Shown here: positions 1,560 to 28,514 of the stretch, piece by piece
How the letters are laid out: every line of letters starts with the position of its first letter
How positions within the stretch are numbered: position 1 is the first letter of the stretch
NCBI GenBank assembly: GCA_045613785.1
Contig: JAZLBQ010000001.1
Coordinates: 2,571-66,570 of the forward strand
Source: Candidatus Enterousia sp.
GTDB lineage: Bacteria > Pseudomonadota > Alphaproteobacteria > Rs-D84
Length of the DNA: 64,000 bases
Direction of reading: 5' to 3'
Made by a program: the position numbers and the translations under genes
The notes under the pieces: generated by a model
What the model was told of the DNA's origin: nothing
The model's database searches: none
What the model saw: only the letters and a program-made list of their open reading frames with translations

Positions 1560-1629
1560 ATGTGTTTTTTTATCTGGACAGGTAAAATAATCTTGTGCTA
1601 AGATTTATTTGTATATAGAGAGAATAGAT

Positions 1630-4600
1630 ATGAAGTTTATCAGATTTTTAGCGTTTTCTTTGTTCTTTGCTCCGTTCGCAGCAAGTGCAGCAAGCAGTGA
1701 TTTTATGATGGCAGCACAGTTGTTGGCAGCGGCCAAGGCAGCCGATATTCAACAGGTGCAAAGTTTGGTAAATGCTGGTGCTGATATAAACTTTGTTGAT
1801 TCAACAGGGGTTTCTATCGTTTGCACCGCTTTGATGAATAATGATGTGCGTGCGGCACAAATCTTGCAGATGTATGGGGCGGATGCGTCAAAATGTGATC
1901 GTCAGATAAAGCAATTTAATAATCGTAATAAACCCAGGGCCAGTGGAGGGCTGTTTAGCGGACTGTCGTCTGTCCAGGGGATTACGTTAGCGGCGGCGGG
2001 GGCCGCCGTTGTTGTAGGTGGCTTGTTGTTGCTGACTGATGTGTTCGACCCTGGTAATGATAATGATGCTGCATCATCAGATGGTAATCGACCCGACAAT
2101 AATCCAGATGATAATACTGATCAAAGTGCAGTGGCTTATTTGTCTGTGCCGTATAGTCCAGCGTATTTGGGACTTGATGGAAAAATCACAACAAGTGATG
2201 AGACTTATCGTGCAAATTTAACCTTGTGGGATCCAACCGCTGGCAGTGCTTTGCGTCAGGCGGATTTTAATTATTTTAGACCGCAGGTTCAGGCTGAAAA
2301 TAACTATGTTATCGACGGCTTATATTTGCCAATGCAGAATTATCTGTTGATGATGCATGGATATTCAGCCTTTGCTAATGAATATATGGGGCAGGGAATC
2401 TTTCGTGATACGGCAACTCGTAACCCGATATTAGTTGGAAACAGTGCTACTGGAGGGCGTCCTGTGATTGCAGGATTGGTAACAGATAATGGGGTTAGTC
2501 CTGTGGGGGCGTTGGATAGGTCTGGTGGTATAGTGTATGCAATTAGTGCGGCGGCAGATTCGGCAACTTATCTGGTGGATAAATTTACAAACTTTAATAA
2601 TCCAACATCTGATGGATTGGGAACTGAAATTGTTGGTTTTGATTTCTCGGGAAATGGAACTGCGATGAATTTGTTTGCCGATTCGTATGATAATGCACTG
2701 GGGAAAATTGTCGCCGGATGGGAGGCAGGTGGTCGCACAGATGGCGATTTAATCGGTTTTGTTCCAAATGGACGCTTGGGAATTTTTAGAACAGGTGGTG
2801 GTAAATATTGGCAGGATTTGGTTAGTCCACTTGAGGGGGAAGTTCTGGGAACGGTCGTAAATGGTGATGGGGCAGATGAAAATGCGATTGATGTTGGTGA
2901 TACGATAACCTTTGGTGGAAAAACTTATTTGATTTCGTTGGCTGTTGCAGATTCTACAATTGTCAATCCAACGATTACTATCAATGGAACGACCTATAAA
3001 TTGCCAAGTAATAGCACGCTGTTAAAGGGTGTTTGTTCGTCAAGTGTTGAAGGGGAATGTGATGACGTTTCTGATATTGCTATTTATCTTGGGGATGATG
3101 GTGCTTATTATGTAAATACAACAGGTACTAATTCTGTCGATAATGTCTTGATGGTAAATGGTGGTAATATTTATGCAAAAAAAGAATTAGTTGATGCAGA
3201 TTATAAAAATTTTCAGGCTTTATATAATGCACGCACTGTTAGCGATGTCTTGGCAAATGTATCCGTGATTGATGCGGCACGTGGAAATGATTATTTAACG
3301 ATTGCAGACGTGCCGGGCTTGTTCGATTTGACTTCGGCATCCAAGGAAGAAGTTTTTGCCGCACTGATAAATTCTGCGTATGACAAGAATAATTCTGATA
3401 TAAACAGCCAGGGTATGTATGCACACAGAATGTTTAATAATTATACTGCTGGTTCGCCAATTCTGCTTATGCCAGCAGGTGAATTTCAATGGACAGGTGG
3501 GGCAGCAAAATACGCAACATTTGAAAATTATGCTCCGTTGTTATATGACGGTAATTTGGAACATATGTTTATGACAATTGTTGCAGTTCAGCATACAGGT
3601 GGAACTGCAGGGGCTGGGTCTATTGCAGGTTATGGTAATGGCACTGGCGATAGTTATGGCCCGTTGCGTTTGTCTGTCTGGCAGGATTATAATGGAACGT
3701 TAGAAGATGCGTCTGATGATATTGTTTATATGTCCAGAAAATGTGGGGTTGCTGGTGTCGGATTAAATGGAATTGACCCTTGGTGCTTTGCAGCAGCAGG
3801 GCCAACAGCAGAAATGGCGACGGCTGCGGCGGCAGGGGCGGTTGCTTCATTGAAGGGGGCTTTTGATTATATGTCGAATCCTCAGATATTTATTTTGATG
3901 GCACTGACAGCGGACGGGTATTTGTTAGGAACAGATTCTACAGGTGGTGTTTTCACCAAGGATGCTTTGGTCGGATATTTGAAGAATATGTATTCGCTGC
4001 CATCGGAATATTATGAAGATACTTTGACAGGAGATGCATATTTACAGGCTTTTGCAGATGTGTTTGGTTATGGCTTGATAAATCTGGAACGGGCAATGAC
4101 ACCAAACAAGAAAATTTACTTCTTTGATGGAACAAATATTGTTTCCGCAGGCGGCAATGCGTATTGGCGTGCAGCACAAAATACAGTGTTTAGACCGTCA
4201 TCTGTCTTAAATATACGTGGGGCAACAATTCGGGCACCTTTCTTTGATGTTTTGGAAAGCGTTGATGGCAGTATGAGTCTGCCACGTGTTTGGGAAAATG
4301 AGTTTGCTTTTGGCACAAATGACAAGCGTGGTTTGTATATGGGTGATGTGTTGGGTGAATTAAAAACACGTCGTGATACAGAACAACGCACACAGGTTGG
4401 GGCATTGGGTGTTTCTATGCGGTTTTCAGAACGTGCCTATGTTGATAACTTAAATGGTTTGGATAATTTGAATTTGGATTTCCAAAGCGGAAAATGGAAT
4501 TTTGCGGCGTCTTATCAACGTTATTTAACAGATGGGGCGTCTAGATTCGATGGAACTGCTAATCCTGTTTTGGGATTGGTTTCAAATGCAGTCGTTTCCG

Positions 4601-5337
4601 ATGTTGTGTATAAGTCTGGTAATTGGTCTTTTGGTGGACGTGTCTTTTCAGGTGCAATCACAGATGAGGGGCTGTTAGAAAATGATCCGACAATTTCTGC
4701 CCAGTATATGCCTGCAAAGTTAGGATTGATGAACGGTGGACAGTCAACAATTGCATGGGAAAATGAAAAATTCAGTTTTGCAGGTAATTTTGGTGCTGCT
4801 TATGAAACAAATACATTGTTGGGGGCATGGACAGATGGACTGTTGAATTTGGGAAATGGTCAGACAATGTATGTGGATTTTGTTGGACAGTATAATTTTG
4901 CTGATATGGCTGAATTGACAGCACGAGCAACTTTTGCACAGACGATGTCTGATGTTGCCGGTGATTTTGTTTTGGGTATGTCTGATGTTTATTCAAATGC
5001 ATTTGCATTGGGGGTAAATTTTGGTGCCTTTGAATTTGCTGTGTCTCAGCCGTTGGCTATTACACGTGGGAATTTACAATATGCGTATGCTGACTATGAT
5101 GTTGTAGAAGTGGATAAAAACAAATATGAATTAAAGGTTGTTGATGCGTATGTTGCAGATTTAGATCTGCGGCCTGAAAAACGTGAAGTCCGTTTTGCAG
5201 GAACGTATCGTCATAATTTTGGTCAATTTACAGATGCTGCGTTTGGATTTATTTATAGGGTGAATCCAAATAATACAGATGATTTTGGAGATGAATCAAT
5301 ATTTATGATGAAGTTATCACATCGCTTGGGAATATAA
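1630..5337 (+). CDS. autotransporter-like outer-membrane protein: ankyrin repeats + degenerate subtilase (S8)-like domain + C-terminal beta-barrel
   Basis: The ATG at 1630 gives signal peptide MKFIRFLAFSLFFAPFAASAA; the track start at 1609 is TTG. An ankyrin-like segment reads LLAAAKAADIQQVQSLVNAGADINFVDSTG..NNDVRAAQILQMYGADASKCD. The region GPTAEMATAAAAGAVASLKGAFDYMSNPQI..FGYGLINLERAMTP is homologous to the Ser-motif region of the S8 protein at 51467..53332 but lacks the Ser. The last ~350 aa have an alternating beta-strand pattern. Confidence 0.7.
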   Translation: MKFIRFLAFSLFFAPFAASAASSDFMMAAQLLAAAKAADIQQVQSLVNAGADINFVDSTGVSIVCTALMNNDVRAAQILQMYGADASKCDRQIKQFNNRNKPRASGGLFSGLSSVQGITLAAAGAAVVVGGLLLLTDVFDPGNDNDAASSDGNRPDNNPDDNTDQSAVAYLSVPYSPAYLGLDGKITTSDETYRANLTLWDPTAGSALRQADFNYFRPQVQAENNYVIDGLYLPMQNYLLMMHGYSAFANEYMGQGIFRDTATRNPILVGNSATGGRPVIAGLVTDNGVSPVGALDRSGGIVYAISAAADSATYLVDKFTNFNNPTSDGLGTEIVGFDFSGNGTAMNLFADSYDNALGKIVAGWEAGGRTDGDLIGFVPNGRLGIFRTGGGKYWQDLVSPLEGEVLGTVVNGDGADENAIDVGDTITFGGKTYLISLAVADSTIVNPTITINGTTYKLPSNSTLLKGVCSSSVEGECDDVSDIAIYLGDDGAYYVNTTGTNSVDNVLMVNGGNIYAKKELVDADYKNFQALYNARTVSDVLANVSVIDAARGNDYLTIADVPGLFDLTSASKEEVFAALINSAYDKNNSDINSQGMYAHRMFNNYTAGSPILLMPAGEFQWTGGAAKYATFENYAPLLYDGNLEHMFMTIVAVQHTGGTAGAGSIAGYGNGTGDSYGPLRLSVWQDYNGTLEDASDDIVYMSRKCGVAGVGLNGIDPWCFAAAGPTAEMATAAAAGAVASLKGAFDYMSNPQIFILMALTADGYLLGTDSTGGVFTKDALVGYLKNMYSLPSEYYEDTLTGDAYLQAFADVFGYGLINLERAMTPNKKIYFFDGTNIVSAGGNAYWRAAQNTVFRPSSVLNIRGATIRAPFFDVLESVDGSMSLPRVWENEFAFGTNDKRGLYMGDVLGELKTRRDTEQRTQVGALGVSMRFSERAYVDNLNGLDNLNLDFQSGKWNFAASYQRYLTDGASRFDGTANPVLGLVSNAVVSDVVYKSGNWSFGGRVFSGAITDEGLLENDPTISAQYMPAKLGLMNGGQSTIAWENEKFSFAGNFGAAYETNTLLGAWTDGLLNLGNGQTMYVDFVGQYNFADMAELTARATFAQTMSDVAGDFVLGMSDVYSNAFALGVNFGAFEFAVSQPLAITRGNLQYAYADYDVVEVDKNKYELKVVDAYVADLDLRPEKREVRFAGTYRHNFGQFTDAAFGFIYRVNPNNTDDFGDESIFMMKLSHRLGI

Positions 5338-6626: not shown

Positions 6627-9344
6627 TTAATTTGTTGGTTCAACTGTTGAAGTTTCTTCTGTCCATACTGCGTGCAGATTTACAAATGTTGACAAGTTGT
6701 ATATTTCCTCATATTCAAGAGTGTTTTTGATACATTGGCCGTTATTGTTGTAGTATTGGGTTTTATCCCCATTGTTCGGGTTTATGTAGAAATAACCTTG
6801 GAATTTATATGCTTCATCTTCGCACTCAGGAATCTCAACTGTTTCTGGTAGTTCTTCTTGGTGTTTAAGGTTTGCACCTGTGATGTTTACGGCTTTTTTG
6901 ACCGCTTGGCAGGTTTTCTCGTCTGTGTTCACAAAACTAACATTGATTGTGCTGCCTGAATTGTTGCTGGGGGTTGTGATGGTTGTGGTAGTTGTGTCAA
7001 CGGCACAGAATCCCCATTTGGTGTTTGCAGATGTTTCGTCATAGAATTTTTTGAATAATTCTTGACCTGTGGTGTCGTGCGTATCGTCGCCGGTTTTGTC
7101 TGTCCAGACCGTATCAACCCACAGTCCGCCCAGGCGTTCGCATTCGGCAGATAATGTGTTTGCCATTTCTGTGCGGATTTTGTCCATGACAATATTGATG
7201 TCTTGTAAAACGGTTGCGGGCAGGGCGTTTTTGGATTCTGATGGACGGACGCAGGCCTGTATTGCATAGCGTGCAATTTTGTGATACAGACTGCCAATAT
7301 AGTCTGTTCCACATTTGTCATTCTCGGTATCAGTGCTGGAATAAAGTGGTTCTTTGTTGGCTGTTCCGCCTGGACAGTATGAGTCTTTGGGACATGGTGT
7401 GCAGTTGTTGTTTTTCTTTGGTGTGCCGTCATATTCCCCATTTTGGTCTGTCATGTAGTAGCCAGGTTTGCAAGATGTGTATTTTATCAGTTCTGGACAT
7501 GCGTATATCTGTGTGATGTTTGATGTTTGTGTTGTAATGCTTTCAAATGCGGAACCACCACTGTTGATGTTTTGGGTTATCAAGTTGCATTGGTGGATTG
7601 ATGCATACATTTTGTCACCAGGTGCGTATGTTCGACAGGCGTATGGATAGGCGTGCAGGGTGTCGCTGCTGGGGACGGCACACAGGTCATGTGCGTAATC
7701 TTGTAATGTGGCCAGGCATTGGTCGGCAATGCGTTGGCTGGTTATGTCGTGCATCGCGGTAAGCAGTTCTGTCATGCCGTGTGAGCCGCCACCATATAAA
7801 TTACTGCAAGCGTCTAATTTTTCTTGGCACATTTCTTCGGATAATTCCAAACGTTGGCCTAGTAGTAATTGGTCTTTGACGTTGCTAAAATCTTTTAATG
7901 ATTTTGTTTGTTCGTCATAGCATTTTGTGACGATTTCAAAACAGTTGTTTTTTACCTGGCGAACACGTTCTTGTTGATTTTGGTAGATTTCCGCAATCGC
8001 TTGACGCATGAATTCGTCCCAAACTTCGTCCGATAAATCACGGCATGTGTCCAGGGATTGTTCGGCAAATTTTCGTTTGGAATTTAATGTTGCAACAAAT
8101 AGACGGTTTGTTTGGTTGTTTAAAACATCGCCAGATAATGATATTTGTGTTTCAAGTTTGTAAAAGTCAGGACTGTAAATCGGTTCGCCTGTTGTGTAGT
8201 TTAGATAGCGGCCTGTTACGTCAAGACAGTGAACGTAGTTTGGACCGCATGCTAATTCTGATGTTATGTCTGAACGGACGTTGGCGACACAATCATTGAT
8301 TGAAGTGGAATTGTGGTTGTTGTAATTTTCCAAACGTGCCAGGTTCATTTCACGTTCAGCAGCACGAATTGTGCTGTTGGCTGTGTTTAATTTGTCGTCA
8401 AGGTCATTTAATAATATCGAACAATCGTTTTCAATATACATCCCATATGCAGTTGTCACCATTGTCTGGGTGGCTGTGTCGGGGCATTTGTCGATTGTAA
8501 TTTCTGCACATTGGGCGTGAACTGCGTTGTATAAGGCTTCGCCTGTAAGGTTGCTGATGTTTGCACCGCCCATTAAATCGGTTGTTGCCCAGATTGAATT
8601 TATGTCGCCTGCGATATCTAATTTGCCCTGGGTCGATAATGATTGCGATTTCGTTTTTGATAAAACGTCCCTGATGCCAGCAAGTTGTGATGCACTGCCA
8701 GATGTGTCATTGGTAATTGATTGGGTGAATTCGCCAGTCGATGCAGAAAGCATTGCTTTGACTTCGGCCTTGGTTTTGTCAATTACTTCTAGGTTCAGGT
8801 TCTTGAAATCTTGTAATTGGTCGGCGGCTTGGGATAATGCACGTTCTCGTGATTGGATTTCAGGTAATTTTGTCGAACATATACAGCGACGATATGTGTC
8901 GTTGGCTATGCCACAGAACTGATCCATACAGGTAAAGTATGCGTCACGGCATGTGTTGTAGCCAGTGCCAAATGTGTTCGATTGAGTCGTGTTCATCGTA
9001 ATCGTTGCACGAGCAGGACGAATGGCACTGCGTGCAGAATTGGTGCGGTTCGCAGTTGTTCGAATTTTGTTGCCACTGATTGCACTTCGTGCAGTAGATA
9101 CTGTTTTTGTAGTTTGTGCTGTTGTTGCTGTGCGTGAATTACTGCGGTTCGTTGTCGCTGTGCGTGAAACAGTGCGATCAGACGTGGTGCGTGCCGTTGT
9201 TGTTTTTGTTGGGGGTGTTGTTTGAACTTGCGTTCGTGATGTTGTGCTTGTGTTACGGACAGGGCTTTTTTCACTGCGAACAGCGGCGTTGGCAAAACCA
9301 ACACCTAGCAATAGTGCTAGAATTGAAATGTTTATCCTTTTCAT
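6627..9344 (-). CDS. giant secreted Cys-rich/coiled-coil protein, CMDxFC family, with Thr/Arg-rich N-terminal low-complexity region and a CxxCP module
   Basis: Start moved to the ATG at 9344 (MKRINISILALLLGVGFANA signal peptide). The longer track ORF would overlap infA and its terminator. Family box TCRDAYFTCMDQFCGIANDTYRRCICS. Also contains CKPGYYMTDQNGEYDGTPKKNNNCTPCPKDSYCPGG. Confidence 0.8.
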   Translation of the reverse strand: MKRINISILALLLGVGFANAAVRSEKSPVRNTSTTSRTQVQTTPPTKTTTARTTSDRTVSRTATTNRSNSRTATTAQTTKTVSTARSAISGNKIRTTANRTNSARSAIRPARATITMNTTQSNTFGTGYNTCRDAYFTCMDQFCGIANDTYRRCICSTKLPEIQSRERALSQAADQLQDFKNLNLEVIDKTKAEVKAMLSASTGEFTQSITNDTSGSASQLAGIRDVLSKTKSQSLSTQGKLDIAGDINSIWATTDLMGGANISNLTGEALYNAVHAQCAEITIDKCPDTATQTMVTTAYGMYIENDCSILLNDLDDKLNTANSTIRAAEREMNLARLENYNNHNSTSINDCVANVRSDITSELACGPNYVHCLDVTGRYLNYTTGEPIYSPDFYKLETQISLSGDVLNNQTNRLFVATLNSKRKFAEQSLDTCRDLSDEVWDEFMRQAIAEIYQNQQERVRQVKNNCFEIVTKCYDEQTKSLKDFSNVKDQLLLGQRLELSEEMCQEKLDACSNLYGGGSHGMTELLTAMHDITSQRIADQCLATLQDYAHDLCAVPSSDTLHAYPYACRTYAPGDKMYASIHQCNLITQNINSGGSAFESITTQTSNITQIYACPELIKYTSCKPGYYMTDQNGEYDGTPKKNNNCTPCPKDSYCPGGTANKEPLYSSTDTENDKCGTDYIGSLYHKIARYAIQACVRPSESKNALPATVLQDINIVMDKIRTEMANTLSAECERLGGLWVDTVWTDKTGDDTHDTTGQELFKKFYDETSANTKWGFCAVDTTTTTITTPSNNSGSTINVSFVNTDEKTCQAVKKAVNITGANLKHQEELPETVEIPECEDEAYKFQGYFYINPNNGDKTQYYNNNGQCIKNTLEYEEIYNLSTFVNLHAVWTEETSTVEPTN

Positions 9345-9414
9345 CCGTATATATTCTGTGTTTATTTTATCAAAAATATGTGCTGATAACAAGCAAAATG
9401 AAATTGTTTTATTA

Positions 9415-9446
9415 AAATAAAAAACCGCCTTTTGGCGGCGTTTTTT
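9415..9446 (-). terminator. rho-independent terminator of infA
   Basis: Minus-strand hairpin CGCCGCC-AAAA-GGCGG followed by a T run. It overlaps the infA stop codon. Confidence 0.8.
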
Positions 9447-9693
9447 ATTGGTTTGTTGTTTCCCCCGTAGGACGATTGCGTTCAACGAATGTTATGCGTC
9501 CTTTGTCCAGGTCGTATGGGGTCATTTCAACACGAACACGTTCGCCAACGTTTACCCAAATGCGAGCCTTACGCATTTTGCCGCATACGGTCGCCAAAAT
9601 TTCATGTCCGTTTTCTAGTTTTACACGGAACATTGTGTTAGGTAATTTGTCTTCGACTGTGCCAGTGAAAACGATTACATCATCTTTTGCCAT
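9445..9693 (-). CDS. infA: translation initiation factor IF-1
   Basis: 82 aa, with [57 protein letters not shown]. This is the canonical IF-1 S1-fold sequence. Confidence 0.95.
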
Positions 9694-18931: not shown

Positions 18932-19468
18932 TTAGGCGTTTAGCACAGGTCGCCAAATTTCCATAACAGCATCATGGTTGGCATAGGTGTCCAGGAATTG
19001 AATAAGATTGTTTATCAAATCAATTTGGTGTGATGACCAGTTGTATTTGGGGTTCTTTAAGATAACATTGTCAAAGTATTTTTGGACAGTATAGTCGTGT
19101 TTATCTTCGTGGGTGATAAAGCGTTGTTCAAAACTGGCACTGTGCCAATCACATACCATTTCGACAAGTGTTATGTCGTTGATTTTACTGACGTCGCAAT
19201 AGTGTTCTAAGTGATGTGGTTGCATGCGGTGATGTTCGGCGTGCATTTGGCGGAATAGGTCCAGATTGGCTTTTGGGATATTGTATTCGGGGTGATAACG
19301 GAAATAAATTCTGAATGCGTATGCGGTTTGCATTGGACCAGACATTTTGTCGTTATCATGTTCGGGAAAGTGGTATCCCAACAGGCCTGCAAAATAATTC
19401 AGGCTATTTATGTGTGCGCTGGTTCTGATTTTATGAAATTCGTAAATTGTGTCGATTGATATTTGCAT
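18932..19468 (-). CDS. hypothetical His-rich protein
   Basis: 178-aa ORF with His clusters (HFPEHDND, MHAEHHRMQPHHLEHY, CDWHS). It may bind metal. I cannot name a family with confidence. Confidence 0.6.
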   Translation of the reverse strand: MQISIDTIYEFHKIRTSAHINSLNYFAGLLGYHFPEHDNDKMSGPMQTAYAFRIYFRYHPEYNIPKANLDLFRQMHAEHHRMQPHHLEHYCDVSKINDITLVEMVCDWHSASFEQRFITHEDKHDYTVQKYFDNVILKNPKYNWSSHQIDLINNLIQFLDTYANHDAVMEIWRPVLNA

Positions 19469-19526
19469 AACTGGTATTTTATCATATTTTTTTGTGTTTT
19501 TTATGTGAAAAAATTTCTACTTGCAT

Positions 19527-19563
19527 TGGGGCATAGTTTAACGGTAGAACTCCGGACTCTGAC
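19527..19563 (+). pseudogene. tRNA-Gln 5' half (truncated in the anticodon loop)
   Basis: The 38 nt at 19526..19563 are identical to 24431..24468, covering the acceptor 5' strand, D arm, anticodon 5' stem and loop CTCTGAC. The sequence then diverges. Upstream TTTCTACTTGCATTGG matches the -35 region of the intact gene, but the 33 nt carrying the -10 box are absent. Confidence 0.85.
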
Positions 19564-19756
19564 AACCTATATGCTACACAACAAAAAATCCCAGATTCCC
19601 GCATATTACAGATTGAATCACGGGCAAAATGGCCGTTTAACATTTGTGCATATCACTGCATACAGGCTGGTTTAAGTTGGTTTGTATATGGTTTCAGTTT
19701 TACATATTTTTTACACAGGAAAAGTGTTGCAAAAGCATATCAATGTGTTCAGAAAT

Positions 19757-19783
19757 TAAACCCGCCAATCGGTGGGTGTTTTT
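19757..19783 (-). terminator. probable terminator of the 24039->19784 gene set
   Basis: Hairpin ACCCACC-GATT-GGCGGGT on the minus strand, followed by a weak T-rich run. Confidence 0.5.
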
Positions 19784-22700
19784 TTATTTTCGCATAAATT
19801 CAAAATATTTAGGATCTTCTTTAAATACCTGAACATCAAATATGCCTGTTCGCATTAGCGTTTTGGCGACATCTTCATAACCTTCCTTTTCTGTATTAAG
19901 CAAGAAGCTTACCGATTTATTTTGATCAAGCAAATCGGCCGCTAGGCTATTCACATTGGCATAGGAAGAAAATTTCCCAGTTACTCTGTCATATGGCACT
20001 GCACCCTGTCTTTGGACAGCAAGCATTAAAGCCTCTCCAACGTCAGTATAGTCTTCATAAGAATTCACCACAGATGCAACGTCCCCGATCCTATACGCAG
20101 TCTGTTCTGCTGGCGTTGCACGATACGCATCATCTGATGCACCATACAAGTCTTTAGTGGCATCATATAACTGTGCCCCTAATGCATTTGCGTTTGGGTT
20201 AAGTTCATCAATTGCATGTCCGCCATTTTCATGTGCCAAGGTATTTATAAAACGTTCATAATTTTGTTGCTCATCAAAATCTATGCGGGTTTTGTTTGTC
20301 TTGGGGTAATATGCTCCGACAGTATTATCTGTGAATTTGTGAGCTTCTATAGTCGGTGCACGGTGGCGTGGAATTCCGTTCATTTCAAGCAATTTATTAG
20401 AAATTTCTTGGGCAAATATCGTTTTTTGATCTGTTGTTAGGCTGTACCAATTTTGCTTCATTGATTTTAGCCATTCGTCAGATTCAATTATATCGTGTAT
20501 TTGGTCCGCACGTAATAATGCAATTTCATCTAGTCGTTCTATTTGAACAGTATTTCCCACATCAAGTAAAACTTTGTCTGTGGTTAATTTTCTGATTCGT
20601 TCAGATCCTGCTCTTTTTGCTTTTTTGGCTTCATCGGCTGTTGTTTCCCCTTTTTCAACTAGCTTGTTTTGATAGTCTTCTACCTGTGAATATCTGGCTT
20701 TATATTCATCTATATGCTCTTGCGCGGTTCTTTTTATTTGTCGTACATCACGATTAAATGTAGAATAATTACCGGTAAAACCGTGATTTAGGACATGTTC
20801 ATAACTGATCATTTTGGAGCGTAAAACTTCTATTTTTGGATATTGTCTGGCAAATTCTGTTGGGTTGTCTAGATATAAATCAAATACTTCATCGGGGGCA
20901 GTCCGCCAAAAATCATCCAATTCTTTTTTTACTTGGGGCAAATTTGTTCTTGCTTCATTCATTATTGCTTTCATGCTTTCATCATTCAATGGGGCATCCC
21001 AAGAAACCCAATTCTTTGACATTTGTTGCATCTTTGATAAATCATTGTCTGCCATCGCTTTGAAATCATCCAACGACTGGTTGCGTGGGGCGTATTTTCT
21101 GTGAAGTTCACGCCAAACCGCTTCAACATCATCCAAATTGTCGGTGGCACGCATTTGTGGAATTTTACGTTTTAATATCAGCCAGTTGCCAGTAAGGCTA
21201 TCTTTTTGAGCCCGTTCTACAATATCTATTATGGCGTCGAATTTCTGTTTTATTGCGGCGGTACTTTTGGCTATGCGACTGGATTTTGAAATCGCCCATT
21301 TGGTAATACCGGTTATCACCGATGCCAATTGCAGGCCAATACCAACCGCACGCCATACCTGTTCCGGTTCCCAAGATTCCCAGAACCCTGCTTTGTTATC
21401 CGCCATGTCGGTACCATTTACCAACATGGTTGCCCAGATTTCGTCATCGTCTGGTATCAGGTTTGCCAGGCGGGCCAGTTCACTGTCAACTGCGTCCGCC
21501 TCGGCATCGGTCATGTCATTTTGGACATTTGCCATGCGTTGCAAGTTTTCGGCCAGCATTTTCTTGGCACACGTTGCGTTTTTACATTTATTACTTTCCA
21601 CCAAGAAATTGTCTGCAATGCCGTTTATTTTTAGTTGACTGGTTATTTCAATACCGGCACCAACGGTTTCAATGGCGGTAAATGCAATTGCAGACTTGGT
21701 CGCTGTGGCCGTGCCAGCAACAGCGGCGGTGGCGGTCCCGACGGTCGCAACAGTGATAACAATCCCAACAATTGCACCACCAACAATCATTGTAATGTTT
21801 ATACCCCTTTGCAGGTTTTGTGCAGATGCAGATGATGGCAATACGCAACTTTGTGTTTTATCGTCCCATTTTGCAGCCTTGCATTCTGGACATTCTTTCA
21901 GGTTTGATTTTCGCAAGACTTCGCATTGTTGTTCGCCCAAGCCGATACAACGTTTGCCGCTGTATGTGCCGCCTGTGACGATACAGGACATTCCCTGAAC
22001 ACCACCGGCAACAGTCTTTTTCCATTTTTCATTTATATCATTAAAAACAAAGTCTATTTGATTGTCACCAACACGACATGTTTTTATGTCGTCTTTGAAA
22101 TCGGTTATGCCATTTCTTGCACAGCCCGTGCCGGTATATGTATTAAACCCAGAATCACATTTGACCGATGATTCCGATACACCCGCACGTTCGGCAACAT
22201 ATTGTTTCAGATATGTTTCAACATTGGGCGCATTTGTAACCTGAATGCCGTGACAGAATACAAAGTTATCAATGCCGTATGCTGTTTTTAGGTCTTTTTG
22301 TTTGGTGACTGTATTAAAGTTTATTTCGCATTTTCCATTTTTATATTCTGCTATATACCCAAATTTGGCCATGGATTGGTTTATTTTTGCACATTTTGCA
22401 CTGTCTGCCGCACAGGATGCAGACCAACATGTGGCGGTGCCACTGACATTTGTGCCGCCGCCCGCACAGCCGGCCGTGGTTGGTTTTGCATCATACATAC
22501 GACAGATTGCGTTTTGAATGCTGTTCTTTATGATTTGGTCTTTTGGTTCTTCTAAATCGTCAAACACGAATTCATAGTATGCGTTTTGGTTATGTGATGT
22601 GCACATTAACGTGTAGTCTAAGGTGCCTTTATCAAAGTTGCCTTTGCATTGTCCTGTTGTGTCGTTGTGTTTTAATCGTGCGTATTCCTTGGCTAATGTT

Positions 22701-23110
22701 TGGCCTGGGGTCAAATTGACCTGGGTTCCGCCATAGATTTTGTTTGTAAAGAAATCATCAACGCATATATAGCCGGCTTTGCCTTTGTATTGTTTGTCGC
22801 ATGCGTGATAAAATTTTATATTTGCTTTTTTAACCAGCGTATTTACAAATTTTTGACATTGTGATTTGCCGTCCGATTTTTTGATGTCCCAGCCAGCAAT
22901 TGCACAAATATTCCATAATTTTTGGGCGGATATACCAGTGCCATTGGATTGCTTTATTTGATTGTTATATTCGCTGATTACAGAAAATTGTTTTTCGGCT
23001 GGCACGAATTCTTTTACAACAGATTCCACCGTAGATGGATTTATGTGAATGTTTGCCAAACATGGTGTAATAAAAAACAGCGATAATAATGTCAGGGCTA
23101 TTTTTTTCAT
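19784..23110 (-). CDS. large membrane-spanning protein: Cys-rich ectodomain, Gly/Ala/Thr-rich TM region, ~500-aa C-terminal domain (hypothetical)
   Basis: The ATG at 23110 overlaps the upstream stop (ATGA) and gives signal peptide MKKIALTLLSLFFITPCLA. About 430 aa with >30 Cys come first. Next is ITMIVGGAIVGIVITVATVGTATAAVAGTA and a second hydrophobic segment. The long charged C-terminal domain contains the HENGGH motif. Confidence 0.75.
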   Translation of the reverse strand: MKKIALTLLSLFFITPCLANIHINPSTVESVVKEFVPAEKQFSVISEYNNQIKQSNGTGISAQKLWNICAIAGWDIKKSDGKSQCQKFVNTLVKKANIKFYHACDKQYKGKAGYICVDDFFTNKIYGGTQVNLTPGQTLAKEYARLKHNDTTGQCKGNFDKGTLDYTLMCTSHNQNAYYEFVFDDLEEPKDQIIKNSIQNAICRMYDAKPTTAGCAGGGTNVSGTATCWSASCAADSAKCAKINQSMAKFGYIAEYKNGKCEINFNTVTKQKDLKTAYGIDNFVFCHGIQVTNAPNVETYLKQYVAERAGVSESSVKCDSGFNTYTGTGCARNGITDFKDDIKTCRVGDNQIDFVFNDINEKWKKTVAGGVQGMSCIVTGGTYSGKRCIGLGEQQCEVLRKSNLKECPECKAAKWDDKTQSCVLPSSASAQNLQRGINITMIVGGAIVGIVITVATVGTATAAVAGTATATKSAIAFTAIETVGAGIEITSQLKINGIADNFLVESNKCKNATCAKKMLAENLQRMANVQNDMTDAEADAVDSELARLANLIPDDDEIWATMLVNGTDMADNKAGFWESWEPEQVWRAVGIGLQLASVITGITKWAISKSSRIAKSTAAIKQKFDAIIDIVERAQKDSLTGNWLILKRKIPQMRATDNLDDVEAVWRELHRKYAPRNQSLDDFKAMADNDLSKMQQMSKNWVSWDAPLNDESMKAIMNEARTNLPQVKKELDDFWRTAPDEVFDLYLDNPTEFARQYPKIEVLRSKMISYEHVLNHGFTGNYSTFNRDVRQIKRTAQEHIDEYKARYSQVEDYQNKLVEKGETTADEAKKAKRAGSERIRKLTTDKVLLDVGNTVQIERLDEIALLRADQIHDIIESDEWLKSMKQNWYSLTTDQKTIFAQEISNKLLEMNGIPRHRAPTIEAHKFTDNTVGAYYPKTNKTRIDFDEQQNYERFINTLAHENGGHAIDELNPNANALGAQLYDATKDLYGASDDAYRATPAEQTAYRIGDVASVVNSYEDYTDVGEALMLAVQRQGAVPYDRVTGKFSSYANVNSLAADLLDQNKSVSFLLNTEKEGYEDVAKTLMRTGIFDVQVFKEDPKYFEFMRK

Positions 23111-24039
23111 TTCAATACCCCCGTACATTTTTCGGCAACCGTTGCTACTTTTTTGATTGCACTGATTTGCGTTGCATTGAACACAGTTGCCATGGCGGAT
23201 GCCGCCGTTGTCCCAATTGCCAATGTGTTTGCCGCAGTATTTAGATTTTTTTCTTTTTGCTTGCCAGATTCTGTATTATCGTTGCGTGTTTTGTCTGTGT
23301 TTGCGGTGGCGGATATGATTGTTCCGGTCAGCCCAGTTGCGGCACCAACGGTAGATGATATCATTGCACCCTTGGCACGATTGTTGATTTTTGATATGTC
23401 AACATACTCGTATTCGCCACAGGCTGTGGCAATAGATTGTGCCTCAGTAATATCCTCGCCATTTATTCGTGCCTGTATTATGGATTTTTGCAAGGTTTTG
23501 ACACTGCTGATACAGTTATTGATTTGTGTTTGCAGGTCAGCATCTACTTTGTTCGTGCCGGCAATAATTGCACCGGCCACATTGGTTGCTGTGCTACCCG
23601 CCATTAAACCAGTACGCCAGTTGCCCAGTTTTTTGGATTGTTTGGTTAATTTATCTAACTCGGCCTGTGCGCCATCTATATCTTTGATTGCAATGTCATA
23701 GGATTGTTCAAACTCCGTCAGAAACGCCTGTTGTTCGGCATCGGTGGGATAGATTGCGTTTTTCTCTAATTATTCCAGCTCTTTGATAAGTTTTTCTAAT
23801 TCTTCGGCTTGATTGTCTTTGGATTGTTTTACGAACCCCGTGACCGTTGCACCAATGCCGGCCGCCGTTCCAACAGATGTAATTGCGGTGTTTATGCCGG
23901 CCATTGTTTTCAACTCACTCAATTCATCATCAATTCCCACACATGTAGCGTATGTGGCACGTAACGCATCATCCAACGGCAATATATTTGCCGATGCCAC
24001 AAATGGGAAAATTATAAAAAACAAGGTAATATATCGCAT
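23107..24039 (-). pseudogene. secreted Gly/Ala/Thr-rich repeat protein interrupted by a single in-frame TAA (23770..23772)
   Basis: Track ORFs 23770..24087 and 23107..23604 are in the same frame (483 nt apart). The 165 nt between them have no further stop and no ATG/GTG/TTG until 23604. The ATG at 24039 gives signal peptide MRYITLFFIIFPFVASA. Four similar G/A/T-rich hydrophobic modules span both halves. Confidence 0.55.
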
Positions 24040-24392
24040 GACTACATTCGTGTGAATTGTATCATATATTTGCATGGATTTATACACAATTTTTACATGC
24101 GTAGGCTTGTGGTGTAATGGGAAGAGAAATGTGAAAATATATTCAAAAATTATTTCAAAATGCCCCGGTTTTACATAGGAAGTAGTGGTTTTTTGTGCGT
24201 TTTTCAGATCAGCGGACTAGCGGAACAATGGTCTGGAAAAATTAAAAGTGGCGGGAATATGGTGTTTTTAATGTAAAATCAAGGTGATGGTTATTGTTTA
24301 GGGGTGTATTAGATACATATTTTATATGTATAAAAGTGCTTTCATTTTGCAAAAATTTTTACATATTTTTTACATGGGGATTAACTTTCTGC

Positions 24393-24421
24393 TTGCATTG
24401 GAAATAAAAAAGCCTTATAAT
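24393..24421 (+). promoter_or_regulatory. sigma70-type promoter of tRNA-Gln
   Basis: TTGCAT-N17-TATAAT. The -10 box ends 10 nt before the mature tRNA 5' end. Confidence 0.7.
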
Positions 24422-24431
24422 CCGCCGTGCT

Positions 24432-24505
24432 TGGGGCATAGTTTAACGGTAGAACTCCGGACTCTGACTCCGTCAGTGTTGGTTCGAATCCAGCTGCCCC
24501 AACCA
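24432..24505 (+). tRNA. tRNA-Gln (anticodon CUG)
   Basis: 74-nt cloverleaf folded by hand. Acceptor TGGGGCA/TGCCCCA, D arm GTTT/GAAC, anticodon loop CTCTGAC, T arm GTTGG-TTCGAAT-CCAGC, encoded CCA. Close to E. coli tRNA-Gln. One C-U mismatch at 27-43. Confidence 0.9.
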
Positions 24506-24650
24506 AGATTCTATTGTCCCCTTTTTGGGGGCGTTTTTTTATTAGATAGGGATAGGAATAAAAGAATAATTTTATTGATTATTTATTCTGATGTGCTATG
24601 AATTGTTTATCTGTAATTTTCAGAAATTTGTTTTTAGAAAAGGAGAGCTC

Positions 24651-27600
24651 ATGTCCAATACAAAACATTTGGCGGATTTTTTGAAAGTCTGCAGTTTATT
24701 GCCAGCATTGGCGATTATGCCTGCAATGGCGGAAACTGAGATTATTGAAGAACGATTGAATTTGACGGCTGATAAAATTTATCAAACAGATGTTTTGGCG
24801 GATGGGGTAGTTGGTTCGCAAGGTGGCGTTTTCTATGTCGGTAAGGATGTTGGACTGGTCTTTCAAGATGACGCGACGTTTAAAAATAATGTTGCACAGG
24901 GAAAAAATGTCCATGGTGGGGCAATCTATAATGAAGGTCGGGTTGATTTCGCAGATGATGCAACTTTTTCTGGCAACAAGACTTATTCTGGCGGTGGTGC
25001 AATTAGAAACTTGGCATCAGGATTGATGACTTTTAATGGTGATGCAGAATTTGATGGAAATTTGGTTCTGTATTCCAAAGACAATAGCGTTGGTGGCAGT
25101 GGAGCTGCAATAAATAATAACGGTAAAATCGTTTTTAATGGTGAAGCAACTTTTAAAAATAACAGTGCCTTAGATAGAAAAGATAGCTATTCACAGGGTG
25201 GGGCGATTTACAATGGTGGTGAATTAGTATTTAACGGCACTGCAAAATTTACAGGAAATGCTAGTTATAACAAAGGTAGTGTAATAGAAAATACTGCTGC
25301 TGGTAAAATAACTTTTAATAAGGGCCTTGTTGTAAATGGTAATGGAACAGATTTAAAAGGAAATTCTTCGAACGGTATAAATAATTCAGGAACCATGAAT
25401 ATCTCTGGTGGTGATGTAATTATTACAAACAATAATACTGGCGGAATTGCTGGGATTTCAACTGGTGCTGTGTTGAATATTGATGCAGGTGATTCCGGTA
25501 AGATTTTATTTGAAAATAATACAACACGGGATTCTATTGTTGGGTTGTATTCTTCAGGCAGTGAAACAACATTGTTAGCTGATTTAATCTCGTTTAAAAA
25601 TAATGTTCAGACAAGTAATACTGCCAAGGTTTATGGTGGTGCAGTTTATAATGGTGGGTCTGGTTCAGATCAGGGTGTGCTGAAACTGTTGGCGAAAAAT
25701 ATTGTCTTTGAAGGAAATACTTTGAACGGTTTCCAGGACGGGCATAAAAAAATTGGCGGTGCAGCACTGTATAATCGTGGTGGTGGCGATTCTGCTAGTG
25801 TGACAGAAACATTTGTTGGTTTGGCAGACGGAACAAGCACGATCTTGTTCAAAAACAATTCTTCGGCACAGCATGGAGGGGCGATTTTTGGGCGAACAGA
25901 TGACGGAACTGGTTTTGATGCACAGTTGACTTTGACTGGTAATGTTGAATTTTCTGGAAATAGTGCCGGTGAAAACGGTGGTGCTATTATGAACTGGACC
26001 GATGGTCGTGGTGGATTGACTGATATCAATATTGTTGGAAATGTTTCTTTTGAAAATAATATCGCTGGTAAAAGTGGAGGGGCTATTTTCAATAGCGGAA
26101 CAGTTGATTTAAGCAAAGCTGTTGCTGAATTTGAAGGAAATATCGCCAAAGGTAATTATGGTGGGGCAATTTATAATGCCGCTTCTGGTAAGTTCGTAAA
26201 TTTGACAGCAGAGTTTGAAGAGAACAAGGTTCAAAATGATGATTTCGCTGCCGGTGGTGCAATTGCAAATATTGGAAAGATTGCTGAACTGACTGGGGAA
26301 TTTGAAGAAAATTCTGTTCTTGCAACAACTGATAATGTTATAACATCCGCAAAAGGTGGTGCGATTTATACGTTTGCTGGTTCAACAATTGACTCAATCG
26401 TTGCTGACTTTGATGGTAATTTTGCTATCAGTGGTGGTGAAGCAATGGGTGGTGCAATCGTTAATGATGGTAAAATCGGAAAACTGCATCAGTTAAAAGA
26501 TGGTTTTGTAAATAATAAGGTTGATGCCAAGGTTTATGCCTGGGCAGGTGCGTTGTATAACAGTCAAGGGGCAACAATTGATGAATTAAAGGCGGACTTT
26601 ACTGCTAATTCTGTTAAAGGGGCATTGTGGTCCGTTGGTGGTGCGGTATTGAATTATGGCACTGTTGGCACATTGACTGGTAATTTTACAAATAATTCTG
26701 TAGTGGCAACTGAACAAGATGGGTCAGCATTGGGGGGGGCAATATTGAACTTTGATACTATCCAGGCATTGAGTGGTAATTTCATTGGAAATACAGCGTC
26801 AGCTGCAACAGCAGAGTATGCAATGGGGGGGGCAATTGAAAACTATTCCGGGACAATCAATGTCGTTGGGGATAATTTGTTCCACAAGAATATGGCTGAT
26901 TATGGTGGGGCAATTGACAACAATGATGTGCTGAATTTGACAGGTAAAAACGTATTTACTGGCAACAAGGCAAATTATGATGGTGGGGCAATTTATAATG
27001 CTGGCACGTTGAATTTGGCTGGGGAAATCATCTTCGCTGATAACGTTCATGGAAAATATAATGCTGCCAATGACATCGTAAATGAAGGTGCTTTGAATAT
27101 TACAGCAGGAACAACAACCTTTGGTGGTGGTGTCAAGGGAACTGGTGATTTGGTATTGGCCGAAGGGGCAATATTAAATATTGGCACAACTACAATTCAT
27201 CAGGGGACTATCAATTTACAGGGAACTGTTATCGCTTCGCTGGTAAATAATCAGCGTGGAAATGGATATGGTCGTTTCGTTGGTGATATCACAGTCGGGG
27301 CAAATGCAATGTTTGAATTGAACGTTGGTGCCGTTGGAACATATAATATCTGGGATGGTAATGTGATTAGTAAAGATCAGATTATTGTCGGTGATATATA
27401 TGAAATTGCAAATATTGATACCAATGGTGTTCAAATTGTGACTAAATCTGTCGAAAAGGTTGCACAAGATGTTGGACTTTCAACCCAGGCGGCGGGTGCG
27501 GTTGTAAGTATGGCAAATTCAAATATTGGTAAATCGCATCAGATTTCTTTGGCGTTGCAAAATGCGTTGAACAGTGGCGATGCAGAATATGTCGAGGCAG

Positions 27601-28514
27601 AAACCAAGAAATTAAACCCAACAGATAAACCTGTTACCCAGGCGGCTGCGGCTTCAATGCAAAATCAGATTTTGTCGCTGGCATCAGGACGTATGTCTGG
27701 CGGAATGGCAATGGGACGTGCCGGTGGTGACGAGGCAACCCAGGAAAATGGTTTCTGGATTCAAGGATTGTTTAACAAGTCTAAGTTCGCAGATAAATTC
27801 CATGGATATACACGTGGTGTTGCACTGGGGGCAGATACATTGCTTGAAAAGACTTGGACATTGGGTGGCGGTTTGGCATTTAATAATTCTGATGTTCATG
27901 CTGATGGTTTACATACAAATATCGACAGCAGAACCGTGTTCTTGTATGGTCAGTATAAGCCGGGCAAATGGTTTGTAAATTCGACTTTGACATATAACAT
28001 GTCTGAATATACAGACGATAAAACTGTTGCTGCAATCAAGTTGTCAAATACATACGATGTCGATTCGTATGGTGCCCAGATTATGACTGGCTTCGATTTT
28101 GCAACAGGTATCACGACCGAGGCTGGATTGCGTTATCTGCATATTGCACAGGAAGGCTATACAGATGAATTGGGTAATCCTGTTAGTGAAATGGACAACA
28201 GTTTCTTGTCTGGTGTTGCGGGCGTAAAGTATGCGTTTGAAATTGAAAACGATTGGTCCATTCAGTTGCGTCCAGAATTGCGTGCTGCAATGACATACGA
28301 TTTTGTCAGTGATGATGCGGTTGCAACGGTTGTCTTGCCGGGGGTTGCATCATACGAGGTTGCGACAGATCGTTTGAGTCGTTTGGGTGGTGAATTCGGT
28401 ATCGGATTGACTGCACTATATAAAGGTATGGAAATTTCCGTGATGTATGATTTAGATTTACACCAAGATTATACATCTCAGACGGGTATGATAAAGTTCC
28501 GTGGAAAGTTCTGA
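24651..28514 (+). CDS. autotransporter with polymorphic-membrane-protein (Pmp-type GGAI / FxxN) repeats
   Basis: The ATG at 24651 follows AAAGGAG and gives a signal peptide ..LLPALAIMPAMA. There are more than 20 GGAI[YFV]N / FxxN repeat units. The C-terminal ~280 aa are an autotransporter beta-domain ending ..MIKFRGKF. Confidence 0.85.
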   Translation: MSNTKHLADFLKVCSLLPALAIMPAMAETEIIEERLNLTADKIYQTDVLADGVVGSQGGVFYVGKDVGLVFQDDATFKNNVAQGKNVHGGAIYNEGRVDFADDATFSGNKTYSGGGAIRNLASGLMTFNGDAEFDGNLVLYSKDNSVGGSGAAINNNGKIVFNGEATFKNNSALDRKDSYSQGGAIYNGGELVFNGTAKFTGNASYNKGSVIENTAAGKITFNKGLVVNGNGTDLKGNSSNGINNSGTMNISGGDVIITNNNTGGIAGISTGAVLNIDAGDSGKILFENNTTRDSIVGLYSSGSETTLLADLISFKNNVQTSNTAKVYGGAVYNGGSGSDQGVLKLLAKNIVFEGNTLNGFQDGHKKIGGAALYNRGGGDSASVTETFVGLADGTSTILFKNNSSAQHGGAIFGRTDDGTGFDAQLTLTGNVEFSGNSAGENGGAIMNWTDGRGGLTDINIVGNVSFENNIAGKSGGAIFNSGTVDLSKAVAEFEGNIAKGNYGGAIYNAASGKFVNLTAEFEENKVQNDDFAAGGAIANIGKIAELTGEFEENSVLATTDNVITSAKGGAIYTFAGSTIDSIVADFDGNFAISGGEAMGGAIVNDGKIGKLHQLKDGFVNNKVDAKVYAWAGALYNSQGATIDELKADFTANSVKGALWSVGGAVLNYGTVGTLTGNFTNNSVVATEQDGSALGGAILNFDTIQALSGNFIGNTASAATAEYAMGGAIENYSGTINVVGDNLFHKNMADYGGAIDNNDVLNLTGKNVFTGNKANYDGGAIYNAGTLNLAGEIIFADNVHGKYNAANDIVNEGALNITAGTTTFGGGVKGTGDLVLAEGAILNIGTTTIHQGTINLQGTVIASLVNNQRGNGYGRFVGDITVGANAMFELNVGAVGTYNIWDGNVISKDQIIVGDIYEIANIDTNGVQIVTKSVEKVAQDVGLSTQAAGAVVSMANSNIGKSHQISLALQNALNSGDAEYVEAETKKLNPTDKPVTQAAAASMQNQILSLASGRMSGGMAMGRAGGDEATQENGFWIQGLFNKSKFADKFHGYTRGVALGADTLLEKTWTLGGGLAFNNSDVHADGLHTNIDSRTVFLYGQYKPGKWFVNSTLTYNMSEYTDDKTVAAIKLSNTYDVDSYGAQIMTGFDFATGITTEAGLRYLHIAQEGYTDELGNPVSEMDNSFLSGVAGVKYAFEIENDWSIQLRPELRAAMTYDFVSDDAVATVVLPGVASYEVATDRLSRLGGEFGIGLTALYKGMEISVMYDLDLHQDYTSQTGMIKFRGKF
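26732..26739 (+). repeat. G8 homopolymer inside the Pmp autotransporter CDS
   Basis: TGGGGGGGGC, encoding part of a GGAI repeat. Confidence 0.95.
26825..26832 (+). repeat. G8 homopolymer inside the Pmp autotransporter CDS
   Basis: ATGGGGGGGGC, a second tract 93 nt downstream of the first. Confidence 0.95.

Follow-up and report, generated by a model that had tools for sequence, protein, structure and literature searches.

A probable recent nonsense allele in the small gene of a two-gene cassette of Candidatus Enterousia

We analysed a 64,000-nucleotide (nt) stretch of the Candidatus Enterousia sp. assembly GCA_045613785.1 (contig JAZLBQ010000001.1, positions 2,571 to 66,570 of the forward strand; hereafter, the window), in which the small gene of a two-gene cassette, 310 codons long and located on the minus strand, is interrupted once, by a premature TAA at codon 90 (23770..23772). 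In the closest orthologues this codon is GAA (Glu), and the sequence comparisons lead us to regard the site as probably a recent nonsense allele of a normally continuous gene. Events of this sort, namely ordinary one-base gene disruptions or base-call errors, are known and common. The base change is observed in the assembly only, and we infer from it the presence of the T in the organism itself.

Results

The interrupted frame and its premature stop

Translation of the window reveals a single frame on the minus strand (24087..23107) that is broken once, by the TAA at 23772..23770, which is codon 90 when counted from the ATG at 24039. The listing of open reading frames (ORFs) gives two pieces, 23770..24087 and 23107..23604 (both on the minus strand), and the peptide around the stop reads EKLIKELE, the stop and then LEKNAIYPTDAEQQ or, over a longer span, NQAEELEKLIKELE, the stop and LEKNAIYPTDAEQQAFL; a segment spanning the stop is GAGCTGGAATAATTAGAG. 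The initial annotation had placed both ORFs in one minus-strand frame split by a single TAA, with neither a second stop nor an ATG, GTG or TTG ahead of 23604. Translation and direct reading of the sequence bear this out: past the stop, the first in-frame ATG, GTG or TTG is the one at 23604, and the joined 310-codon frame has no second stop or frameshift.

The open stretches flanking the stop measure 148 and 220 codons; at ~41% G+C, where ~6% of random codons are stops, we calculate p ~1e-6 for a random open stretch of 220 codons. Moreover, both pieces match consecutive parts of a family profile built from diverse family members (positions 6-92, E = 2e-32, and 103-319, E = 4e-92), and a search with this profile found no further family copies inside the window. 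The interrupted frame is real, and not a product of chance.

The N-terminal piece (codons 1-89; 23773..24039, minus strand) holds a signal peptide (residues 1-17, MRYITLFFIIFPFVASA), Cys33 and hydrophobic segment 1 (residues 49-70; 23830..23895, minus strand). The C-terminal remainder (codons 91-310 plus TGA; 23107..23769, minus strand) comprises hydrophobic segments 2, 3 and 4 (23551..23610, 23302..23370 and 23170..23235, respectively, minus strand), together with Cys176, Cys207 and Cys305. The first in-frame ATG after the stop (23602..23604, minus strand) is Met146, a conserved internal methionine of the motif WRTGLMAG.

Codon 90 in related loci

In the protein alignment, the column of the stop is occupied by E in the closest orthologues. 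At the DNA level, locus L001 (93% nt identity) has GAA opposite the TAA of the window, with identical neighbouring bases, and the six closest loci, which share 86-90% amino acid (aa) identity, all have GAA within the peptide EKLIKELEELEKNA(I/N)YP. We compared the aligned codon in 67 matched segments (that of the window and 66 others): 30 loci have GAA, and the other loci have a different sense codon or a gap. A metagenome scan with N at the mutated base returned a single contig, L065, which carries GAA and is syntenic with the window, featuring both the tRNA-Gln (transfer RNA for glutamine) gene and the autotransporter gene. Whether this codon is sense in orthologues, a question raised by the initial annotation, thus has a clear answer: it is GAA in all the closest ones, a single step away from TAA.

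The small gene is uninterrupted in 65 of the 66 other loci, so that orthologues consistently encode one gene, which is the opposite of the consistent pair of separate genes considered in the initial annotation. Truncated products of 165 and 101 aa occur on one contig only among ~15 billion proteins, and this same contig also carries the 1114-aa product of the window. When the window is compared with five close orthologues, the ratio of non-synonymous to synonymous substitution rates (dN/dS; Nei-Gojobori) amounts to 0.07-0.14 for the part ahead of the stop and 0.08-0.13 for the part that follows, values that are indistinguishable from those between intact orthologues (0.03-0.23, or 0.05-0.20 as the comparison for the part after the stop). 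With no additional lesion and no relaxation of dN/dS downstream of the stop, the change is therefore either a recent event or an artefact.

A probable recent nonsense allele and its expected consequences

Under the favoured reading, a single G-to-T transversion would have converted Glu codon 90 from GAA to TAA. Translation would halt after 89 residues, of which ~72 would be left after cleavage of the signal peptide between ASA and N, and this remnant would hold only the first of the six helices of the predicted bundle (residues 36-93). The 220 downstream codons would remain untranslated and would give rise to nothing functional, with the sole canonical restart codon, 167 codons further, lying in a conserved hydrophobic helix, possessing no ribosome-binding site and yielding a product without an export signal. 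Ribosomes would also miss the ATGA junction with the intact 1108-aa partner gene, so that coupling to the latter would be lost, and some polarity would be possible. The event would be very recent, because there is neither a second lesion nor relaxed constraint, and the loss is probably tolerated, given that many related genomes carry several copies of the family.

Several observations favour a real allele. The other same-frame ORF neighbours tested in the window are distinct genes (for example, those for an APH kinase and a Fic protein), which argues against an error-ridden assembly. In addition, locus L040 (described below) shows independent decay of the cassette, and the family is redundant, with multiple and tandem copies. 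Other observations weigh against this reading. These lineages are reported to show no accumulation of pseudogenes (PMC12306168), and no sequence from the same species was found in the collections, where the best relatives are at most 87% identical at the nt level across the locus. The base is known from the assembly alone, which is compatible with an error in the consensus or with a minor variant that the assembler picked up. The contig names of related metagenome-assembled genomes (MAGs) imply ~6-13x coverage (cov_6.5 to cov_13), which makes consensus errors likelier in this group, and the combination of a sole lesion with unchanged dN/dS is exactly what an artefact would give.

Alternative explanations

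The most serious competitor, which we consider a less probable though substantial possibility, is that the organism has GAA and an intact gene, with the T being a consensus error or a low-frequency variant in a low-coverage MAG contig. A single-base difference in a frame that is otherwise perfectly conserved, with unchanged dN/dS and with truncated products confined to one contig, fits this explanation, as do the names of the Enterousia MAG contigs in the collection, which often indicate ~6-13x coverage; moreover, G-to-T is a well-known artefact of library damage. However, none of the other genes checked in the window is broken, and the same cassette has genuinely decayed elsewhere (L040). Short-read consensus sequences seldom contain substitution errors, and a stop arises from only a few percent of random substitutions, so that such errors would rarely create one. 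Both the recent nonsense mutation and the sequencing or assembly error, which had been listed as options in the initial annotation, therefore still stand.

We consider it unlikely that the stop is a real null allele favoured by selection and not just tolerated. Here, the two genes would form a previously undescribed, Rs-D84-specific envelope or effector cassette that is multi-copy, is inserted beside tRNA-Gln and is bracketed by a half-tRNA repeat, and its copies would be silenced by point mutation in order to escape a phage, host or competitor that recognizes them. In this scenario, the independent TAA of L040 in the same variable hairpin region would constitute a second example.

Programmed stop-codon readthrough, or another form of recoding that yields the full 310-aa protein, has very little to recommend it. 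Although the frame is open and conserved after the stop, the stop itself has no counterpart in L065 or in any close orthologue, where an ordinary GAA is found instead, and the aligned position is sense or a gap in all 66 other loci. Furthermore, most genuine termination in the window relies on TAA, which ends 33 of the 39 long ORFs, and the context of the stop is TAA-T; in E. coli, no termination context is known to be more efficient than UAA-U. No suppressor tRNA was found in the window, the only tRNAs of which are Gln(CTG) and Leu(CAA), and an Rfam search of 19300-24700 returned no match besides tRNA. Thus, neither a leaky context nor a stimulatory RNA element nor a suppressor tRNA accompanies the stop.

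Equally hard to sustain is a two-protein design, in which an 89-aa exported peptide would be accompanied by a 165-aa protein initiated at the ATG at 23604 or, closer to the stop, at a rare start codon. The ATG at 23604 is indeed present, and gene callers emitted the 165-aa product, but no orthologue is organized in this way. Moreover, this ATG corresponds to Met146, which belongs to the nearly invariant LGNWRTGLMAG and falls midway through hydrophobic segment 2, with no Shine-Dalgarno-like sequence in the 20 nt upstream of it (AACTGGCGTACTGGTTTA). The resulting product would have no signal peptide yet would retain three of the four invariant cysteines (C176, C207 and C305), which most simply are, presumably, extracytoplasmic disulfide partners, and, in the AlphaFold model, it would miss half of the long helical hairpin. 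As both the readthrough and the two-protein readings predict a conserved arrangement, they fail against the single ORFs of 65 of the 66 loci, and even when taken together they are very improbable; programmed readthrough and reinitiation at 23604, also put forward in the initial annotation, are contradicted by the sense codon of the orthologues, the prevalence of TAA as the main stop, the single ORFs, the conserved internal Met and the missing Shine-Dalgarno-like sequence. Reassignment of TAA in the genetic code was rejected by the stop-codon usage in the window, and phase variation by the lack of a simple-sequence repeat at the stop site.

Sequence features and predicted structure of the small protein

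The joined product carries a signal peptide, as had been claimed, which is plausible and features an A-S-A cleavage motif conserved across the alignment. It had further been described as four similar modules with Gly/Ala/Thr-rich hydrophobic segments. Hydropathy analysis locates four such segments (residues 52-70, 143-162, 224-242 and 269-287; Kyte-Doolittle 19-residue means of 1.05-1.39), but their homology as repeats is unsupported, since hhalign comparisons between the sub-alignments of the modules are not significant (E of 0.007-0.36, probability <6%) and the AlphaFold model is one helical bundle. Among 103 diverse members, C33, C176, C207, C305, G68, G139, R142, T143 and S243 are invariant, and conservation in the family is lowest in the stretch that separates hydrophobic segments 1 and 2.

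A first AlphaFold run with 87 close homologues was unusable (predicted local distance difference test, pLDDT, 48), and it was replaced by one with the diverse 103-sequence alignment, which produced a confident all-helical model with a pLDDT of 86 and a predicted template modelling score (pTM) of 0.65. In this model, a hairpin of two very long helices (36-93 and 100-162) is followed by helices 167-192, 198-212, 216-246 and 257-309, the stop at residue 90 falls just before the tip of the hairpin, and each of the four Gly/Ala/Thr-rich segments lies within one of the long helices. The model fits a four-pass membrane protein, with the four cysteines on the exported side and Lys/Arg-rich loops on the opposite one, and it also fits a soluble secreted bundle with a core packed from small residues. 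Because membrane helices would be expected to have a higher hydropathy than these segments do (1.05-1.39), we make no choice between the two.

Neither the small protein nor its partner has a match above the cut-off in Pfam, NCBIfam, PHROGs, PADLOC or the sequences of the PDB. Weak matches to HblD, LeoA and keratin were treated as noise arising from composition or coiled coils.

Distribution of the small-protein family

A search with the joined 310-aa sequence returned 1834 proteins at E <=0.01. The best 120 matches are uninterrupted single proteins of 280-346 aa with 67-91% identity and a query coverage of 89-100% (at least 95% in all but one), and the few named matches are each a ‘hypothetical protein’ from MAGs of uncultured Alphaproteobacteria. 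In an exhaustive hidden Markov model search of 1.84 billion cluster representatives, the family forms at least 419 clusters at 50% identity, typically of 300-330 aa. A scan of one genome per GTDB species identified 63 loci, nearly all of them from MAGs labelled Candidatus Enterousia or Alphaproteobacteria and originating from animal and human guts. At least 9 genomes contribute two loci each, and tandem copies are found in L008 (3544-4455 and 6001-6933) and L058 (468-1358 and 2956-3873). Taken together, the family is large, lineage-restricted, unannotated and uncharacterised.

Candidatus Enterousia (order Rs-D84) has genomes of less than ~1 megabase (Mb) and lacks the tricarboxylic acid cycle and respiration (PMC12306168). 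Multiple copies of the family occur within single genomes of <1 Mb, where the more distant copies have much shorter partner ORFs (220-550 aa). In another MAG, locus L040 (CALXMY010000007.1, 4652..9034) is a decaying copy of the cassette. Its small gene has an in-frame TAA at locus position 4997, which aligns at about residue 115, within the same variable hairpin region as the stop of the window and at a different position, and its partner gene is frameshifted, with ORFs of 521 and 664 aa in different frames.

The partner gene and its coupling to the small gene

The intact partner gene (19784..23110, minus strand) encodes an 1108-aa protein with a signal peptide and a Cys-rich N-terminal domain, and it is full-length when compared with homologues of 1095-1113 aa. 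The overlap of the 3′ end of the small gene with the start of this gene, already noticed in the initial annotation, is an ATGA at 23107..23110 (minus strand; TTGAAATGAAAAAAA), in which the TGA of the former is interlocked with the ATG of the latter. An AAATGA junction is common to most related loci, and the partner retains a GGGGGT motif 8 nt ahead of its ATG. Among the loci, 62 have the small gene and 41 the large one; the flanking genes differ, no conserved third gene was found beside the pair, and the pair is the only conserved unit.

The deposited gene starts are too far upstream, with the 101-aa product beginning at an ATG at 24075 and the 1114-aa product at an ATG at 23128. Starts at 24039 and 23110 are supported by where orthologues begin, by the signal peptides and by the conservation of the ATGA junction, and the deposited 101-, 165- and 1114-aa calls are artefacts of annotation that stem from the lesion and from an upstream ATG.

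The Cys-rich domain of the partner spans ~430 aa, and strongly hydrophobic, Gly/Ala/Thr/Val-rich membrane segments are found at about residues 437-490 and 585-607. While the N-terminal ~630 aa (21239..23110) are 84% identical to the protein P0144, the C-terminal ~450 aa (19784..21239) are essentially unrelated to it, and nt similarity to six relatives (L001-L006) ends at a common breakpoint at window positions 21234-21239. The variable C-terminal domain contains a HENGGH motif (LAHENGGHAIDE; 20216..20233, minus strand), to which a LAHEN-H stretch in the otherwise divergent C-terminus of P0144 corresponds. This may be a metal-binding or peptidase-like motif, and no family match accompanies it.

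Cassette borders and genomic setting

On the promoter side of the small gene, the cassette is bordered by a tRNA-Gln(CTG) gene (24432..24505, plus strand). At the other border, 19526..19563 (plus strand) is a 38-nt exact direct repeat of 24431..24468, consisting of nt 1-37 of the tRNA, i.e. its 5′ half, and one upstream base. The two copies are 4905 base pairs apart, and zero such matches are expected by chance; promoter-like elements upstream are also repeated. The same architecture of a full and a half tRNA is present in L003 (8125-8161) and L005 (10465-10501), and no integrase is encoded inside the bracketed cassette. This arrangement resembles a scar left by the insertion or exchange of the cassette at a tRNA target.

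The intergenic region holding the half-tRNA (19523..19783) is 94% identical to that of L005, with an identity of 75-85% in the adjacent coding DNA, which suggests a non-coding constraint or gene conversion with the tRNA locus; the region has no Rfam match, and a scan for promoters and terminators around the locus returned nothing informative. The window is otherwise an ordinary stretch of chromosome, with rpsA, a choloylglycine-hydrolase-family gene, a DUF5662 gene, tRNA-Gln, a Pmp-repeat autotransporter gene, clpP, grpE, tpiA and nrdR. The autotransporter, a 1307-aa protein with repeats of the Chlamydia-type polymorphic membrane proteins, is encoded next to the cassette (24591..28514, plus strand), and another two large ORFs (1609..5337 and 6627..9485) are orphans that match nothing in Pfam.

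Discussion

As a candidate for recoding or for a split gene, the interrupted frame has no importance, and annotators should label the small gene as a pseudogene or a possible error. More useful are the by-products of the analysis, namely an unannotated two-gene cassette and its borders formed by tRNA-Gln and its half-repeat. The small protein and its partner are a reasonable target for studying the partner interactions of these bacteria with genomes of <1 Mb. With low confidence, we propose that the two proteins form an envelope complex, in which the small helical protein assists or anchors a polymorphic surface or effector protein.

Among known systems, the alpha-pore-forming toxins of the ClyA superfamily (ClyA, Hbl, Nhe, Ahl, Smh and MakA) are relevant in that the known ones are encoded as adjacent components. 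The small protein, however, exhibits no specific match with significant structural similarity to this fold, a helical bundle bearing a hydrophobic head or tongue, and no match to the superfamily in Pfam or NCBIfam reaches the cut-off. Elongated helical bundles of parasite and spirochaete surface proteins, namely HpHbR and ISG65 of Trypanosoma and BBH37 and FbpC of Borrelia, share 5-10% identity with the small protein, and, since de novo designed bundles score equally, this resemblance is one of fold class only.

Polymorphic toxin and surface-protein loci, which join an N-terminal delivery part that is conserved to a swappable C-terminal domain, resemble the cassette in that the partner has a conserved N-terminal part and a variable C-terminal part. 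They differ from it in several respects: library searches detected no known toxin, Rhs, CdiA, LXG or immunity domain, no immunity-like gene is conserved downstream across loci, and the predicted membrane segments precede the variable part of the partner, the export of which is therefore uncertain.

The closest parallel to the interrupted gene itself is an ordinary nonsense pseudogene or null allele. It deviates from such a pseudogene in showing neither a second lesion nor relaxed constraint, meaning that it is either very young or not real. The likeness lies in the following: one base separates a sense codon in all close orthologues from a stop, the rest of the ORF is intact, and the affected gene is a member of an envelope family that evolves fast and has multiple copies, so that one copy would be dispensable.

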